IMG/VR virus record: IMGVR_UViG_3300035135_000182
Location: 1 to 28,870 of that record
Source: a virus
Taxonomy: Duplodnaviria > Caudoviricetes
Length of the DNA: 28,870 bases
Direction: 5' to 3' (one strand)
Of the stretch, positions 18,876-26,069 are shown one piece after another (the first letter of the stretch is position 1; each line of letters opens with the position of its first letter). The notes under the pieces were generated by a model. The model did no database searches. It was given only the letters and a program-made list of their open reading frames with translations, and was not told where the DNA came from. The translations under genes were made by a program, and so were the position numbers.

Positions 18876-19038
18876 ACCTAATCATACGTTCAACAACTTC
18901 TGGCCCGATTACAGCTATAACTTTATCAGCCTCTCTATCAGTACAGTGTTCTTCTGGGTGGTGAGCAAGGTGTACTTTTTTCACCACTGTTCTTAATATA
19001 TTTCGTTCTTCTACATTAAGGGTGTGCAAAAAACTCAT
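18844..19038 (-). CDS. Hypothetical protein coupled to terL
   Basis: 64 aa, ATGA overlap with upstream gene, overlaps terL start. Confidence 0.6.
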   Translation of the reverse strand: MSFLHTLNVEERNILRTVVKKVHLAHHPEEHCTDREADKVIAVIGPEVVERMIRFGKDKQVDQL

Positions 19039-19289
19039 GTGCGATGTGCCTTTGTCTTCTTAGCAATTTTTTTAGGTTGCTTGCTGAATTGTTTGCCCTT
19101 GCGTAAGGCTGCTCTCTTGGCTCTGGTAGTACGAGCATACTCACTAGCCGATAAAGATTTTATAGCGGATTCTGGAAGGTAACGCTCACCAGTAGCCTTT
19201 GGGCCTTGTGTGCTAGGCTTGCCTGATTTAGTGCGCCACTTTTGCTTTGTCCAAGCGCGTAAGGATTTCTGTGAGGGTGCAAGTGCCAT
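19035..19289 (-). CDS. Basic protein, DUF5872-like C-terminal half
   Basis: QKSLRAWTKQKWRTKSGK...GERYLP...KGKQF motif; very Lys/Arg rich. Confidence 0.7.
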   Translation of the reverse strand: MALAPSQKSLRAWTKQKWRTKSGKPSTQGPKATGERYLPESAIKSLSASEYARTTRAKRAALRKGKQFSKQPKKIAKKTKAHRT

Positions 19290-19456
19290 TAGCTTGTATA
19301 CCCACCACCAGCTTTTTTATAGAGCAGAGCTAGTCTTTGCGCTTTTCTTGCTGACCACTGACCCGCTTTTCCGCCCTTTGCTTCTCGCTTTACTTTGTTG
19401 AACAGGCGTTTTCTCAGGGCTGGCTTCGTGTAGTTCCCTGCTGCGTTCACTGCCAT
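19289..19456 (-). CDS. Basic 55-aa protein, DUF5872-like N-terminal half (missing from ORF track)
   Basis: Manual translation MAVNAAGNYTKPALRKRLFNKVKREAKGGKAGQWSARKAQRLALLYKKAGGGYTS; GGAGG RBS; TAATG-coupled to next gene. Confidence 0.75.
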   Translation of the reverse strand: MAVNAAGNYTKPALRKRLFNKVKREAKGGKAGQWSARKAQRLALLYKKAGGGYTS

Positions 19457-19580
19457 TACTGACCTCCACTAATCTTTGTGAGTCTCTGGTGTATGTTTCA
19501 CCTGACATAACTCGTCCATCAGGTGTTGTGATTGTTGGGCCATCATAAGGTGTGCCATCCCTATATTGATATTTAGGCAT
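19317..19580 (-). CDS. Hypothetical protein
   Basis: 87 aa; N-terminal YRDGTPYDG...PDGRVMSGETYT looks protein-like; last 140 nt overlap the 55-aa gene in another frame. Confidence 0.55.
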   Translation of the reverse strand: MPKYQYRDGTPYDGPTITTPDGRVMSGETYTRDSQRLVEVSNGSERSRELHEASPEKTPVQQSKARSKGRKSGSVVSKKSAKTSSAL

Positions 19581-19722
19581 TAGCTTTACTCTTTAAAATT
19601 TTTTTCTGTAAAGCAGGTGGCAGTGTCTTTTGTTTTGCTGTAAGCAATGACTTACCTTTTTTCTTTGCTTTCTTGCTTGGACGACCAACTTGGTTTCCGT
19701 AAGTTCCTTTTCCCATAGGCAT
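19573..19722 (-). CDS. Lys-rich 49-aa protein (missing from ORF track)
   Basis: Manual translation MPMGKGTYGNQVGRPSKKAKKKGKSLLTAKQKTLPPALQKKILKSKANA; TAATG-coupled; fills the gap exactly; no acidic residue. Confidence 0.7.
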   Translation of the reverse strand: MPMGKGTYGNQVGRPSKKAKKKGKSLLTAKQKTLPPALQKKILKSKANA

Positions 19723-20060
19723 TATGCTTTTCCTTTCATTCTCTTATACCTAGCCAAAAGTCTGCGACCTTTAGCAACTGCGCTAGCCTTATCACCAGAG
19801 TGACCCCATGCAATAAGAGATAGCTTCAAACGAGTCGGTCTGCCCTTCTCGTCCTTCAATGGGCCTTTCGCTGAACCCATCCTTACTAGGAAACTTCCTT
19901 TCCGCCTGACCTGTTCTGGCGTCTTTGGCGCACCCTTCACTGGTGCTTTGAGGTTTCCCTTCTTTCCGCTTTTGGTTCTGTAAGAGGCGCGACCTTTGGC
20001 GTTGAGACCACCTTTGGGGTTCTGACCTGCTTTGCGAGTCCATGCTGGTGACTTTGCCAT
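19722..20060 (-). CDS. Basic protein (AWTRKxGxNPKGGLNAKGRASY family, DUF6321-like)
   Basis: 112 aa, strongly Lys/Arg rich; TAATG-coupled on both sides. Confidence 0.7.
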   Translation of the reverse strand: MAKSPAWTRKAGQNPKGGLNAKGRASYRTKSGKKGNLKAPVKGAPKTPEQVRRKGSFLVRMGSAKGPLKDEKGRPTRLKLSLIAWGHSGDKASAVAKGRRLLARYKRMKGKA

Positions 20061-20335
20061 TAGCCTATATTACTCATATCCATGCCACCGTAGTTATTCC
20101 CATAACTAACAGTGCTGCCACTAAACTTAGTTCCCTTGCCCCCAGAATTATTATCATCACTATCATTGAAGGCAACAAGTGATTTAGCTTTATTTCTTGC
20201 CGCAAGTATAGATGCATTCTTCTTTTGATTCTCTTCAGACAAAGCATACTTGCTTTTAATAAGCTCTTTGCTTGTATCTCTTGGGCCAGACATCATAGAA
20301 TCATCAACCTCTATCGAACTACCACCTACACACAT
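20060..20335 (-). CDS. Hypothetical protein (MCVGG start)
   Basis: ATG at 20335 has GGAGAAG RBS, preferred over GTG at 20350. Confidence 0.55.
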   Translation of the reverse strand: MCVGGSSIEVDDSMMSGPRDTSKELIKSKYALSEENQKKNASILAARNKAKSLVAFNDSDDNNSGGKGTKFSGSTVSYGNNYGGMDMSNIG

Positions 20336-20352
20336 GACGGACTTCTCCACAT

Positions 20353-20385
20353 AAAAAAAAATTACAGCCGTTTGTTCGACTGTAA
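20353..20385 (-). terminator. Intrinsic terminator downstream of terS
   Basis: Minus strand TTACAGTCG-AACAAA-CGGCTGTAA followed by T9; 9-bp stem with one G-U. Confidence 0.7.
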
Positions 20386-20466
20386 CCCATCGAGCCTTTT
20401 TTGGCTATAATGTTTGTGGTGGACCCCTATGGCAACACGATACCGCGTTTTTGACCCCCCTGTGTG

Positions 20467-20838
20467 TCAGCCTAGGTCTATACGCACAGTAATGTCCCCA
20501 GCAACCAAGTGCTGTGATCGTTCTACTGGCTTGAACCCTGCCCTGTCGAGTATATCTTTACTGGCTTCTAGCTGAACGTACTCAGACTTCGCACTCTGAG
20601 CAAGGCGCAACAGCTTGCTAGCGGCAAACGTAGCATTGAGTCCGAGCGTTTCCGTCACACTCTTCATCATGTACTGCTGAACGTGCGGAAGCCGTAATGC
20701 TTTACTGGCACTGACTCTCCCACTCTCTCCGTCAGCGTATCCAGCCTTGCTCGCGGCTTCCTTGATGCTACACCCCGTAGCTACGAGCGTATCCACAAGG
20801 CTAATCTGCTTCGATGTCAGTTTACTTACTTCTGTCAT
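20467..20838 (-). CDS. terS: Terminase small subunit
   Basis: LTSKQ...AASKAGY...ALRLPHVQQY HTH-type N-terminus, QLEASKDILDRAG, C-terminal beta strand; first gene of the late strand; AGGTGGA RBS. Confidence 0.8.
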   Translation of the reverse strand: MTEVSKLTSKQISLVDTLVATGCSIKEAASKAGYADGESGRVSASKALRLPHVQQYMMKSVTETLGLNATFAASKLLRLAQSAKSEYVQLEASKDILDRAGFKPVERSQHLVAGDITVRIDLG

Positions 20839-20875
20839 TCATCCACCTATCGAAACCCCCCTTGTGTTCCCCCCT

Positions 20876-20912
20876 TTTATGAACCAGCTGAGAACGCCTT
20901 GTCAACTCACAA
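20876..20912 (-). promoter_or_regulatory. Putative late promoter upstream of terS (TTGTGAG-TTGACA N18 CATAAA)
   Basis: Consensus -35 with weak -10, preceded by a one-mismatch copy of the TTGTGCGTTG motif. Confidence 0.5.
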
Positions 20913-20935
20913 TACGATATACTTACCTAGAAGGG

Positions 20936-21316
20936 GTCAGCCATATCATGCTCACCCTTTATGTCAGAGGTTGCCCGTTTTACTTGCTTAGTCAACTTCT
21001 CCGTAGATGTCAGTGACAGCCACCCCCTCTGCACGAAACTCCTAGCAGGTCAGCAACCCACTGCCAAAGTAAAGCAGCAGGCCGAACCCCGTAGATGTTG
21101 TGCCTAGCTGGTTTGCTTCCTTCAGCCGTGGCTGTGCTTTACTTTGGTGGCATCCTTGCCCCTCAAGGCAAGGAAGCCAGCGAAGCCAGTGGGCCGTGAC
21201 CTTGGGAGTTATCGGCAGAGGCGGTCTCTGCCACAGACAAAGGAGAAGTAAAAATGACTAAGCAAGTAAAAAACAACCTAGTAGCTGACATAAAGCGTGA
21301 TCATGTTATGACTGAC
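20936..21316. repeat. Long imperfect inverted repeat / fold-back element (~380 nt) with branched core
   Basis: Pairings read directly: 20936-20967/21285-21316 (28 of 32), 20968-20973/21274-21279, 20978-20994/21255-21271 (17 of 17), 20995-21002/21242-21249, 21008-21019/21228-21239 (10 of 12), 21026-21032/21215-21221, 21037-21044/21203-21210, 21047-21052/21197-21202, 21057-21063/21187-21193, 21064-21076/21135-21147, 21153-21160/21167-21174. Confidence 0.9.
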
Positions 21317-21637
21317 AGAGTTATAAACAACCAACTGAATTGGGAATTGAACAATGTAGTCAAGAATCTAGAATGGTCTATCAACAACAAGCAAGAAAAG
21401 ATTGAAGCGATAGACCAGATATTCTATGACTTTGAAGCTAGCAAAGACGGTGAAGGCGCACAGACCGAGCCTGATTGGGTTGACCTCGATAACAAGCGTC
21501 AGTGGCACTTGAAGCAACAGGAGGTAACTCGGGTCTTACGCGACTACTTCAAACAGTCCGTGGACCAACTGTTTCCAGAGGTGAAAGCACAAGCGGCAGA
21601 AGATGCAAAAGCAAGGTTCGCTAAGCGACTAGCATAA
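21254..21637 (+). CDS. First early-strand gene, hypothetical helical protein
   Basis: 127 aa, strong AAGGAG RBS, followed by a hairpin. Confidence 0.75.
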   Translation: MTKQVKNNLVADIKRDHVMTDRVINNQLNWELNNVVKNLEWSINNKQEKIEAIDQIFYDFEASKDGEGAQTEPDWVDLDNKRQWHLKQQEVTRVLRDYFKQSVDQLFPEVKAQAAEDAKARFAKRLA

Positions 21638-21645
21638 CACAAGCT

Positions 21646-21680
21646 GAGAGAGGTTCGGTGGAAACATCGAGCCTCTTTCT
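21646..21680 (+). terminator. 15-bp hairpin with GAAA loop, terminator or 3' stabiliser
   Basis: GAGAGAGGTTCGGTG-GAAA-CATCGAGCCTCTTTC; three G-U pairs indicate plus-strand RNA; U tract weak. Confidence 0.6.
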
Positions 21681-21816
21681 GTGTCTGGCGTAGAGACATC
21701 CAACCACACCCGCCCTCGGCTACGCCTCGGGGGTGGACATCCTCACAACTGTACTAGGCTTGGGCTTGTCATGGAATACCACATACCATTATATATATTA
21801 CTCATCATTTTTCTTA

Positions 21817-21845
21817 TTGCAATGAATGTATTTGTATCTTACTAT
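21817..21845 (+). promoter_or_regulatory. Sigma70-type early promoter TTGCAA N17 TACTAT
   Basis: Near-consensus hexamers, 17-nt spacer, AT-rich upstream, immediately before a GAGGAG RBS. Confidence 0.75.
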
Positions 21846-21863
21846 TTGTAGAGGAGAACACAC

Positions 21864-22031
21864 ATGAATAAATCATTTGAATATTTATTATTTGTTTTGC
21901 TTATGCTTTATGCATTAAGTTGGACAAGTATTCTCTGGGAAGTAACTGGAGATAAACGCCTAACTATGTGGTACTGGATAGCACATAGCGAGGTAAGTAA
22001 AGAATCATTCAACAAAGGAGAACAGCTATGA
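21864..22031 (+). CDS. Small membrane protein, 55 aa (missing from ORF track)
   Basis: MNKSFEYLLFVLLMLYALSWTSILWEVTGDKRLTMWYWIAHSEVSKESFNKGEQL; GAGGAG RBS; ATGA overlap with next gene; one hydrophobic helix. Confidence 0.65.
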   Translation: MNKSFEYLLFVLLMLYALSWTSILWEVTGDKRLTMWYWIAHSEVSKESFNKGEQL

Positions 22032-22891
22032 ATGATATGACAACAATCAATGAAGTGCAGACTGTGAATGAATGGTCGTTCCCAGTTGAAACTGTAAACT
22101 TATCTGCAATCAAAGAAGGTGACTGCAACATATATGATGTGCCACCAGCAATGGCTCGCGGTATTATGAGAACAGATACTAATCAAATGCTTGGTGTTCA
22201 TGGTTCTAAATACAAAGCAATCAAGCATGATGATGTAGTGAACAGTGTACTTGATGCAGTCAATAACTCTGGCATTAGCAAAGATTACCAACAAAAGATA
22301 GAAGTCTTTGACAATGGTGCAAAGCTAAGAGGTACACTTAACTTTCCTGACTTGGTTATTGAACCTTCTGTTGGTGACTACACACAGTTTCAGATTGTAT
22401 TCTTCAACAGCTATGATGGTAGTTGGGCATTTGGACAACAAGCACAAGGCTTACGCTTGTTTTGTTTGAATGGTTGCACAACACCAGACACAGTTGCAAA
22501 GACAACATCAAAACATACAGCCAACATAGATGTCAAAGCATCATCTGCCAAAATACAAATTGGTCTTGATGCATTCTTTAATTCAAAAGAACTGTATCAA
22601 GCATGGATGAAAGAAGACTTAACAGACTTGTCAGTTGAAAACTTCTTCAAAGGATCACTTGCATATGTAAATAGCAAGACATCTGAGAACAAATGGAATG
22701 ACAAGCAGCTACAAAAGCTGATGGGATTATGGTCAGACAATGCCAGATATCTTGGGAAGAACAAGTGGGGATTGTACAACACCATGACAGAGTGGGCTAC
22801 TCACACAAACGAATCGAATAGCCCAGCAAACACACGCAGACTAAGAGAGAATCAAGTAGCTAAATCCCTCAAGGAATTTGCTTACTTGTAA
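22028..22891 (+). CDS. DUF932 family protein
   Basis: RTDTNQMLGVHGSKY, NSYDGS, RLFCLNG, KHT, WGLYNTMTEWATH motifs. Confidence 0.8.
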   Translation: MNDMTTINEVQTVNEWSFPVETVNLSAIKEGDCNIYDVPPAMARGIMRTDTNQMLGVHGSKYKAIKHDDVVNSVLDAVNNSGISKDYQQKIEVFDNGAKLRGTLNFPDLVIEPSVGDYTQFQIVFFNSYDGSWAFGQQAQGLRLFCLNGCTTPDTVAKTTSKHTANIDVKASSAKIQIGLDAFFNSKELYQAWMKEDLTDLSVENFFKGSLAYVNSKTSENKWNDKQLQKLMGLWSDNARYLGKNKWGLYNTMTEWATHTNESNSPANTRRLRENQVAKSLKEFAYL

Positions 22892-22898
22892 GCAGTGC

Positions 22899-22939
22899 GG
22901 AACTGCCACCCCCTCGTTGGGTGAGGGGTGGCAGATTCC
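22899..22939 (+). other. GC-rich intergenic hairpin without U tract (possible RNase III site or stabiliser)
   Basis: GGAA-CTGCCACCCC(C)TC-gttgggt-GAGGGGTGGCAG(A)TTCC. Confidence 0.5.
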
Positions 22940-22965
22940 ACCCTGATACAAAATGGAGAACGACA

Positions 22966-23259
22966 ATGACAGACACAGAAACCAAATCAAACCAAGATGA
23001 CTTAGCAAAAGCAATGCTTGCTGGCTTGCAAGAGCTAATCAAAGCAACAGCCATTGAAACTCAAACAGCCACAAAAGATGGCACTGATAGCGAGTTTTCT
23101 TATGGGCAACGTGAAGAACTAAGCGACATGATTTATGAAAGAATACAGGAGCATATAGAAACTCAGTTAGATGACATTGTAAATGATAAAGTAATCGAAT
23201 GGTTAGACAACAACCTTGCGGAACGTATGAATGACCGCATCAGCATCCACTTTGACTAG
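22966..23259 (+). CDS. Acidic hypothetical protein
   Basis: ATG 22966 with GGAGAAC RBS preferred to GTG 22921; 97 aa, about 23 D/E versus 9 K/R by hand count. Confidence 0.7.
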   Translation: MTDTETKSNQDDLAKAMLAGLQELIKATAIETQTATKDGTDSEFSYGQREELSDMIYERIQEHIETQLDDIVNDKVIEWLDNNLAERMNDRISIHFD

Positions 23260-23268
23260 GAGAATAAA

Positions 23269-23478
23269 ATGAAATCAATGATCAAACAACTCACTGCAAT
23301 CAACAATCAACTACGCCCACTTGCTGAACAACTCAAAGAAGAAAACTCATCATTCAGATGGCGCATACAAAATGCACTGGATGTTCTAAGCAGAGTAGAA
23401 GAAGACTACCATGAGGTGCTTGAGCGTGATGCAAATGAAGACTCTAATTACACACCACCATTAAAGCGAGTAAAATAA
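23269..23478 (+). CDS. Hypothetical coiled-coil protein
   Basis: 69 aa, AGGAG RBS, TAATG-coupled to next gene. Confidence 0.7.
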   Translation: MKSMIKQLTAINNQLRPLAEQLKEENSSFRWRIQNALDVLSRVEEDYHEVLERDANEDSNYTPPLKRVK

Positions 23479-23702
23479 TGGAACAAAAAAACTACAAAGT
23501 ATCTAACAGACATCCACTACCAAAACATACTGGTCGTGGAAGACAGCCAATGTACAACTTTCCTGAGCTAGAAATAAAACAATCTATCTTTGTTGACAGT
23601 GACAACGAATGCAAAGCTGCTCGTAGTCAATTCAACAGAAGAAGACAGACTTTATGTATTCGCCCAGAGAATGATGGCTACCGTATATGGAGGGTAAAGT
23701 AA
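23478..23702 (+). CDS. Small putative DNA-binding protein (GRxxxYxF...GxRIWR family)
   Basis: 74 aa; motif pattern common in small phage early proteins; TAATG-coupled both sides. Confidence 0.65.
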   Translation: MEQKNYKVSNRHPLPKHTGRGRQPMYNFPELEIKQSIFVDSDNECKAARSQFNRRRQTLCIRPENDGYRIWRVK

Positions 23703-24892: not shown

Positions 24893-25163
24893 ACGTGACG
24901 GCAAAGCTGTTACTTGTGAATACTGTAAAGTACAAACACATTGGTTTGTGGTATTAGCTAGTGGCTCTATCTATTGTGATAACTGCATGGAGAAATACGG
25001 ATGGCAACATCTCAGCGCAGAAAAGGAAGCTATCATGAAAACAAAATCCTTGAATGGCTCCAAGAAATCGGCTTCAAAGCAAAGAAACAGCCCCTCTCGG
25101 GACAGTTGGGAGGCGAGTATCGAGGCGACATCCTCATCGACATCGGACAAGACCAACTGGTAG
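24828..25163 (+). CDS. Putative C4 zinc-finger protein
   Basis: CEYC-x16-CDNC lies in the non-overlapping gap; TTG start uncertain; overlaps both neighbours. Confidence 0.5.
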   Translation: MAYKSKSQRNARKARNKIKKYERDGKAVTCEYCKVQTHWFVVLASGSIYCDNCMEKYGWQHLSAEKEAIMKTKSLNGSKKSASKQRNSPSRDSWEASIEATSSSTSDKTNW

Positions 25164-25651
25164 TTGAAGTAAAGTATAGAGATAAAGGCTCATTCCCCAG
25201 CCCGTTTTCTGTACTTGAAGACAGGGACTTAGCTATCTACAGACGCAAGACAGGTACACCAAAGTCTGTAATAATTATAGATACAGAAGTTTTTGAGGAA
25301 CATTTCGTGCCGTTGTTGCTCGCCGGCGGTGGGAGGCAGCGGCAAGCAAAACGGCAGAAAGTTCCTGTATATTGGATACCGACAGAAGAACTAATGTTAT
25401 CAATAAATCAAACACTAAAGGAGGAAATAAATCATGACGATGAAACAGCTAGGTTCTGTAACTACCATGTCGGTAAAGGATCAACCTTTAGCGACATCAG
25501 TCTTGCCTACAGAAAATGGTGCGCTAACTCCGTTAAGTTCAGAAAAGAAAACGAAAGCAGTCGCAAGGTTGCTAAAGGTAAACGACCCACATCAAGTGGA
25601 CAAGAGTCTAGTTTCTTCTCTGGAATCGTTGACGGGCTATCCCGTGATTGA
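25001..25651 (+). CDS. Hjc-type PD-(D/E)xK Holliday junction resolvase fused to a DnaT-like domain
   Basis: RRKGSYHE...PLSG...GDI...VEVKYR nuclease core (aa 1-105); aa ~117-180 WIP...ARFCNYHVGKG...AYRKWCAN resembles the C-terminal domain of phage replication initiators; GGAG RBS. Confidence 0.7.
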   Translation: MATSQRRKGSYHENKILEWLQEIGFKAKKQPLSGQLGGEYRGDILIDIGQDQLVVEVKYRDKGSFPSPFSVLEDRDLAIYRRKTGTPKSVIIIDTEVFEEHFVPLLLAGGGRQRQAKRQKVPVYWIPTEELMLSINQTLKEEINHDDETARFCNYHVGKGSTFSDISLAYRKWCANSVKFRKENESSRKVAKGKRPTSSGQESSFFSGIVDGLSRD

Positions 25652-26069
25652 AAACAGCAGAGTGCTATACAAATCACATGGCGCAGATATCGATATACGA
25701 GGATACTCAATCAAAGTAGATAACGAAGCTATTTGTGATAAAGCAATCGAAGCAGTGCAGTCATCACTTGTGCCTATGCCTGTTGACGATATCAAGAAAC
25801 AACTTGTTATCTTATCTACATTAGTAGTCAAACCATCAGGCGAATCTGCTGGTGACATGAGTGTTCGCATCAATGCAATATCGAATCAGCTAATGGAATA
25901 TCCTGCTGATATTGTAAACAAAGCAATACAAAATGTATCAAAAGAAACTACATTCTGGCCCGCATATGCAGAATTTTACAAGCATATTGGCTGGAAACTA
26001 AAGAAAAGAATCAAACTATTGGAGGCTTTGACTGCAAAAAAACTTGCATTTCTACAACAAAAACAGTAG
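25434..26069 (+). CDS. Putative helicase loader / replisome organiser partner
   Basis: AAGGAGG RBS; LMEYPADIVNKAI...FWPAYAEF C-terminal motif typical of genes following phage initiators. Confidence 0.55.
   Translation: MTMKQLGSVTTMSVKDQPLATSVLPTENGALTPLSSEKKTKAVARLLKVNDPHQVDKSLVSSLESLTGYPVIENSRVLYKSHGADIDIRGYSIKVDNEAICDKAIEAVQSSLVPMPVDDIKKQLVILSTLVVKPSGESAGDMSVRINAISNQLMEYPADIVNKAIQNVSKETTFWPAYAEFYKHIGWKLKKRIKLLEALTAKKLAFLQQKQ

Follow-up and report, generated by a model that had tools for sequence, protein, structure and literature searches.

Long fold-back structures beside genes have been described in several settings. In type I toxin mRNAs such as tisB, hok, and aapA, long-range pairing extends over the ribosome binding site (RBS) and the first codons, and the M hairpin of the podovirus T7 is a fold-back palindrome for terminal-repeat processing near the packaging genes. 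Conjugative plasmids, single-stranded phages, and N4 have single-stranded DNA promoters and hairpins for priming; in the literature searched, none was found for ordinary podoviruses that depend on the host polymerase. Frpo is inactive in duplex DNA and active on single-stranded DNA, and it also primes (PMC12672017, PMC11541004). In the leading regions of F, ColIb-P9, and pESBL, Frpo/ssi elements are large imperfect stem-loops directly upstream of a gene, predicted on one strand (PMC11541004, PMC12672017). The GC-GNA-GC motif of the G4/St-1 origins, RSF1010 ssiA, and the N4 promoters is an extra-stable DNA mini-hairpin, whose RNA counterpart is much weaker (PMC13037366). Covarying viral structures of 29-151 nt, some of them near terminase genes, have also been mined from IMG/VR (Fremin et al. 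2023; PMC10690425).

Here we analyze a fold-back element of 381 nt (20936-21316) in a podovirus genome that consists of a single 28,870-nt contig, the whole of which is referred to as the window. The late genes lie on the minus strand, beginning with terS (20467-20838) and continuing with terL, portal, capsid, tail, and internal virion proteins; the plus strand encodes DUF932, HTH, resolvase-like, YqaJ/RecE, Erf, and SSB proteins. The features of the junction between the two gene sets are as follows.

20467-20838, minus strand: terS, the first late gene (PHROG 2538, E 2e-13; Pfam Terminase_2 above cut-off).
20856-20874, minus strand: G6-N7-G6, a conserved motif seen in many relatives, which separates terS from the late promoter.
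20876-20905, minus strand: predicted late promoter, TTGACA (20905-20900), 18-nt spacer, CATAAA (20881-20876).
20936-21059, minus strand: left arm, a non-coding mirror of the leader, RBS, and codons 1-21 (arm alignment, DNA fold).
21039-21067, minus strand: best promoter-like match on the folded left arm, TTGGCA-17-TAGGAG, 8/12, a candidate that does not score above controls.
21060-21190, minus strand: branched apex domain, modular and shared in differing combinations among lineages.
21191-21316, minus strand: right arm, the template strand of the leader, RBS, bulged A5, and codons 1-21 (arm alignment, folds).
21254-21637, plus strand: stand-alone 127-aa gene, whose product is a predicted helical hairpin (structure model), with no upstream sigma-70-like promoter.
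21648-21679, plus strand: terminator-like RNA hairpin after the gene, with a GAAA loop and G.U pairs on the plus strand (folding).
21766-21795, plus strand: predicted early promoter, TTGTCA-18-TATATA, before the DUF932/RecE/Erf/SSB operon (promoter scan).

As in Frpo, a large stem-loop stands immediately before a gene and is favored on the template strand. Unlike Frpo, the element belongs to a tailed double-stranded DNA phage (terminase, portal, capsid) with no known single-stranded stage, it does not lie in a region transferred as single-stranded DNA, and its gene family had no match in 72,556 plasmids. The phage stem, moreover, often runs into or through the gene, and -35/-10 boxes are not evident in the window copy, the comparison being one of architecture rather than sequence. 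By context, the element is not a member of the Frpo family. The candidates of Fremin et al. 2023 are shorter, and the available text of that paper describes no such element (PMC10690425). The initial annotation had recognized no described element of this kind in podoviruses, and we likewise found none in the literature, most of it openly accessible.

The arms were where the initial annotation had placed them. The 32-nt arms (20936-20967/21285-21316) are 88% complementary, their four mismatches (20941, 20946, 20951, and 20956) falling on every fifth base, and the 17-nt helix 20978-20994/21255-21271 pairs at 100%. The RBS (21242-21248) and codons 1-21 are indeed paired; the five-A spacer at 21250-21254, which includes the A of the ATG, is bulged. 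Pairing continues inward as proposed, and when both strands were folded as RNA and as DNA, 20920-21330 formed a single branched rod. The RNA folds reached -198.3 kcal/mol on the plus strand and -218.4 on the minus strand (both z -13.8), and the DNA folds -111 (z -13.8) and -125.5 (z -15.3), respectively; in each of the four, 0 of 100 shuffles folded equally well. The minus strand of the rod is thus the stabler one both as RNA and as DNA. In a marine DNA run sequenced independently by another study (X3), one contig spans 19295-22350 with 13 differences, none of them in the rod, so the element is not an assembly inversion. Against Rfam, the region 19000-23500 matched no family at the gathering threshold (best E 1.2). 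The short sequence ACATCTA occurs twice on the minus strand of the window rod, and in L002 and L005 it forms short tandem repeats in the stretch that separates the left arm from the -35 box.

The nearest named isolate is Pelagibacter phage EXVC031P Hodr (terS 59.5%, capsid 52.6% identity), whereas capsids of the HTVC010P type are ~30% identical to that of the window. Hodr (OQ414635) is a cultured member of the clade and carries the fold-back element, at OQ414635.1 12036-12374 (L089), running into WDQ27543. No paper pairing Hodr with the term pelagiphage was found, and the available text of PMC10504331 makes no mention of Hodr. Searches of named phages returned no match to the window DNA or to the 127-aa protein, and at the matching junction of HTVC010P and of Vibrio phage 1.254.O there is no such rod. 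The clade comprises at least 598 terS relatives in IMG/VR. From terS searches there, 160 loci were taken, being the best 80 of at least 598 matches and the best 80 of at least 595; 119 had sufficient upstream DNA and were non-duplicate, giving 121 with the window and Hodr. The first divergent open reading frame was detected automatically in 115 of the 121, a few picks being probably the wrong gene. In GTDB, terS matched five short contigs in bins labelled Gammaproteobacteria, Rhodobiaceae, and archaea, which we read as binned phage DNA.

We then examined conservation of the structure. Searching with the 127-aa protein led to seven loci, all of which retain the rod; an eighth match (L008) was spurious. 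Across 97 long-range pairs in eight aligned sequences, 418 cells were unchanged and 98 were double Watson-Crick changes, the others being 38 A.C, 13 G.T, 79 other, and 33 gapped; compensatory changes are therefore present, with double Watson-Crick changes at 34 of the 97 pairs. Synonymous differences numbered 40/406 in the stem versus 320/1422 outside it, and the rate was lower under the stem in all 17 non-overlapping pairs. In the long-stem Hodr group, where the stem reaches from the start of terS to about codon 55 with the whole late promoter inside, codons 23-48 were constrained (0.149 vs 0.254), while at short-stem loci codons 26-48 were not (0.350 vs 0.346). Synonymous constraint thus tracks stem length. 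The proposal that this is a selected structure rather than a decayed duplication is supported by both the covariation and the synonymous constraint. In one class with long spacers (L016, L039, L044, and L063), an extra folded domain of 200-300 nt lies between the late promoter and the rod.

These data bear on one alternative, that the element is a quasipalindrome without function, a mirror copy that template switching keeps matched to the gene. Such switching could plausibly have given rise to the element, and the mirror varies in length from about ATG+50 to ATG+580. Seven of ten long candidates mirror the whole gene, with broken reading frames and ends that lie 23-56 nt past the stop, at or just beyond a terminator-like hairpin. 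Neutral copy-correction should, we reason, leave the substitution rate unchanged, so the constraint on synonymous sites exactly under the stem makes a neutral mirror insufficient. Mismatches containing C are, in addition, purged on one strand only, and the folded apex persists at loci without any gene mirror. As a whole explanation, the neutral mirror is largely refuted, and we consider it very improbable. Two other accounts of the mismatch pattern were rejected: the five-base period is not a family motif, at least three consecutive 4-bp helices occurring in only 2 of the 52 dereplicated loci described below, and codon-position drift is not their source (46, 42, and 40 mismatches over the three positions). 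Together, these results establish the fold-back as a real, clade-wide, selected structure in Hodr-like marine podoviruses.

RBS coverage was defined over an 81-nt stretch centered on the start, of which at least 40 nt had to pair with an upstream arm; 70 of 115 loci qualified, or 52 after dereplication. In 27 dereplicated loci, the start region was mostly free (at most 22 nt paired), and in 22 of these the 280 nt that precede the start still form a strong branched fold (z at most -4; 15 shuffles each). A promoter match for the gene was present in 3 of the 27. Coverage of the RBS is thus optional.

The gene itself gives few hints. First-gene proteins diverge to ~10% identity, 82 of 115 forming one blastp cluster that includes the Hodr protein. 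No Pfam, PHROG, or Atlas assignment was obtained for the 127-aa protein, Foldseek with its model gave no match at E <0.001, and the best VIA-align result (Z 10.3, rmsd 2.1, 78 aligned residues) is ordinary for a helical hairpin; profile matches in PDB sequences were generic coiled coils. A likeness to plasmid leading-region proteins was considered and rejected, with no match in the 72,556 plasmids and one marginal match in 401 genomes.

The transcriptional context was analyzed with a scan for promoters of sigma-70 types only, so that it could overlook a duplex promoter in the right arm that depends on an activator. A late-promoter match lies at the corresponding place in 42 of 52 loci, and since it points away from the rod, the terS mRNA would exclude the rod. 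In the terS region, the scan found no conserved plus-strand promoter, and only 3 of 52 loci had a sigma-70-like match in the 260 nt before the gene; nor was there a conserved minus-strand promoter to the right of the stem, including in the Hodr group with its canonical promoters. The TATACT at 20918-20923, suggested as the start of a transcript entering the left arm, is present, but as a -10 box its spacing to TTGTCA is 13 nt, and the seven closest relatives do not conserve it; we rejected it. Downstream of the gene, all 45 loci have a hairpin, 23 of them with a U-tract, and 24 of the 45 have a promoter match. The gene had been described as the first early gene; with no visible promoter before it and a terminator-like hairpin and the early promoter after it, it is instead a stand-alone, apparently promoterless unit rather than the head of the early operon. 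It seems that no transcript covers both arms. In the RNA-library run X17, a depth-3 contig over 21066-21300 was one of 28 scattered pieces, without strand or ends; runs X19 and X20 contained 3 and 2 pieces, respectively, none listed on the rod.

Several further observations concern the late side of the junction. Most of the Hodr group has the late promoter TTGACA-17-TATACT, whereas the window's subgroup has TTGACA-18-NA.. without T at the last -10 position, which may reflect different hosts. In many relatives, the G6-N7-G6 motif follows the late -35 box at an almost constant distance, and in the Hodr group it is absent; it could be a start-site run or region, or a terminase/packaging site. Directly after terS, a terminator-like hairpin stands on the minus strand (20359-20388), so that expression of the other late genes may depend on read-through or on a further promoter. 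Within the 127-aa gene, 21341-21374 is a partial mirror of the late -35 region and holds a plus-strand TTGAAC-16-TAGAAT match, and in the window, L009, and L011 the local arm alignment reaches as far as the -35 box.

Since an inverted repeat can fold on either strand, its mismatches tell which fold was selected. We scored isolated mismatches in the 52 dereplicated loci, using pairs common to the folds of both strands computed without G.U pairs. Written in template (minus) strand letters, G.T exceeded A.C by 103 to 12, G.A exceeded C.T by 59 to 29, and G.G exceeded C.C by 20 to 0, with 33 T.T versus 23 A.A; the background keto bias of the minus strand at four-fold sites is only 0.54-0.56. On the mRNA strand, the coding part had a single G.U among 128 mismatches. 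None of the window's own eight isolated mismatches places a C on the minus strand. Mismatch ranks correlated with ViennaRNA DNA energies (rho -0.74, p 0.037) and less so with RNA energies (rho -0.52, p 0.18), although once the G.T/A.C class was removed (DNA rho -0.6, p 0.21) neither correlation was significant. G.U, G.A, and G.G are tolerated in RNA too. The minus strand was the stabler DNA fold in 51 of 52 loci, and as RNA it also folded better than the plus strand in most.

The hairpin loops point the same way. The element has ten c(GNA)g loops on the minus strand versus none on the plus strand, and RNA tetraloops number one and two, respectively; in controls, the early sense strand has 14 GNRA and 12 cUNCGg loops and the late sense strand 10 GNRA (Fisher p 0.001 and 0.0002), the early control also having c(GNA)g loops, 14 on the minus and 9 on the plus strand. 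In the apex bin (ATG-200 to -100) of the 52 loci, GC-GNA-GC occurs 16 times on the minus strand, some of them homologous, and never on the plus strand; in 122 kb of late DNA, the counts are 26 and 24. These mini-hairpins, of the type of the N4 early hairpin promoters, G4/St-1 origins, and RSF1010 ssiA (PMC13037366), lie in the apex domain of relatives and are absent from the window copy, whose rod has no c(GNA)g loop. The N4, G4, and ssiA hairpins are short and read by a virion polymerase or a primase, whereas here the mini-hairpins tip a stem of 150 to >500 bp; no virion RNA polymerase was detected here, the two large internal virion proteins (1381 and 1078 aa) having no polymerase match in PHROGs or PDB sequences. 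A second hairpin (21705-21735) follows the terminator, with a GC-GTA-GC loop on the minus strand (21718-21726), and similar hairpins follow the gene in several relatives. From the mismatches and the loops together, we infer that the element probably folds in the cell as single-stranded DNA of the template strand. Of the two possibilities raised by the initial annotation, these data favor the second, a single-stranded DNA structure of the Frpo or sso kind.

The first had been a self-repressing 5' leader on the plus strand, which would lock the RBS until processed, as in tisB or hok, with C-containing mismatches serving to avoid RNase III. The plus-strand RNA fold of -198 kcal/mol over the RBS, pairing of the RBS region in 70 of 115 loci, and the depletion of perfect runs of 11-20 bp (27 vs 73.5 expected) are what such a lock would look like. 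G.U pairs are nearly excluded from the mRNA strand, however, even though the neighboring terminator, an internal control for the look of a plus-strand RNA hairpin here, contains both G.U pairs and a GAAA loop. The scan found no conserved promoter upstream of the left arm, a strong hairpin is kept in most of the loci with a mostly free RBS, and whole-gene mirrors far exceed the needs of a lock. The product, moreover, is predicted to be a polar protein of 127 aa rather than a small hydrophobic membrane toxin. Differing from type I toxin leaders in strand polarity, leader promoter, product, and the optional coverage of the RBS, the element is unlikely to be a tisB-like 5' leader.

A non-coding RNA on the minus strand, antisense to the gene and terminating ahead of the late promoter in a U-rich tail, would also form the rod. 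The G.U-rich polarity fits such an RNA, which would fold better than its plus-strand counterpart in most loci, and a T-rich stretch follows the rod on the minus strand in the eight aligned close relatives. Against it, no conserved promoter directed leftward was found to the right of the stem, the Hodr group included; beside its ten c(GNA)g loops, that strand has a single GNRA loop and no UUCG loop, and Rfam gave no match. We regard an antisense RNA as improbable.

We tentatively favor, as the most likely function, an Frpo-like promoter or priming site for the 127-aa gene. Once freed, the minus strand would fold back imperfectly as single-stranded DNA, and host RNA polymerase would start in the folded stem, for which the left arm would supply the non-template partner, and transcribe the otherwise promoterless gene; the folded stem could also prime plus-strand synthesis. 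Activity would be confined to times when the minus strand is single-stranded. The single strand might arise by end resection after entry or a packaging cut, or by rolling-circle strand displacement, and 5' resection that begins at an end close to terS would free the minus strand, as would strand displacement. If the left arm acts as the non-template strand, this would account for its variable length, which in some loci falls short of the RBS and in others takes in the whole gene, ending at the terminator, and would make coverage of the RBS a by-product.

Promoter boxes in the folded stem were scored against controls. Of the short-hairpin loci, 20 had a stem that could be scored, and in seven of them the non-template arm reached at least 9/12, compared to one and two in the controls, an excess that is marginal (p 0.044 versus one control; at a threshold of 8/12, p 0.0003 and 0.054 versus the two controls) among loci that are related. 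In L132 and L138, TTGATA-16-TATGAT appears only after a side hairpin loops out. In contrast, the 52 RBS-covering loci, including the window, showed no excess of folded-stem boxes of at least 9/12 (six vs seven, two, and two in controls), and the window itself scored 8 vs 8 and 8. The late promoter was rejected as the folded promoter: it lies in the stem in 12 of 12 Hodr-group folds, with the -35 box partly or wholly unpaired in 8 of 12, and in the window it lies outside the main stem.

The same strand-polarity and loop evidence applies to a close rival of the Frpo-like promoter, namely that the minus-strand DNA fold serves replication or end processing alone, its overlap with the gene being incidental. 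As a snap-back hairpin or a primase/terminase signal beside the packaging site, it would cap or re-prime a resected end or duplicate a terminal repeat. The element adjoins terS and the G6-N7-G6 motif. Among the proteins of this phage are a YqaJ/RecE exonuclease, Erf, SSB, and a resolvase-like protein, and fold-back extension would also make mirrors of variable length. Of 68 contig ends upstream of terS, 13 lie no more than 120 nt from its start (p 2e-5), but they do not share a single position, and the hairpin could have caused drop-out from the libraries; the clustering fits a terminus and drop-out equally. A short paired 3' end suffices for priming, which does not call for constraint as far as 50 codons into a gene, and the gene's missing promoter is left unexplained. 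Unlike the T7 M hairpin, the element is tied to a separate gene. We consider a role in end processing or replication alone somewhat unlikely.

The resolvase-like domain of the protein encoded at 25001-25651 is fused to a second domain, which by motif we take to be DnaT-like, and its gene overlaps by 218 nt a 211-aa open reading frame (25434-26069) whose nearest named Atlas clusters are lambda P and G39P loaders (score 0.83-0.85, a lead only). This resolvase-plus-extra-domain protein was rejected as a junction-binding initiator: it is full length in only 16 close relatives among 84 matches, and is therefore not family-wide.

Returning to the Frpo-like promoter, one possible, rather speculative extension is that the gene is silent on duplex DNA and read only from the folded strand, the element being a sensor of DNA state that would turn the gene on upon resection of the genome end or strand displacement. 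As part of this, the decayed whole-gene mirror of some lineages might, just as speculatively, be a built-in non-template strand. Covariation alone can make a DNA structure resemble an RNA motif, and the polarity of mismatches and loops can separate the two. Since Hodr is cultured, termini, start sites, and strand state are directly testable. If the fold is indeed one of DNA, these marine phages have an undescribed single-stranded stage at the junction of early and late genes, and possibly a form of gene control by DNA state.
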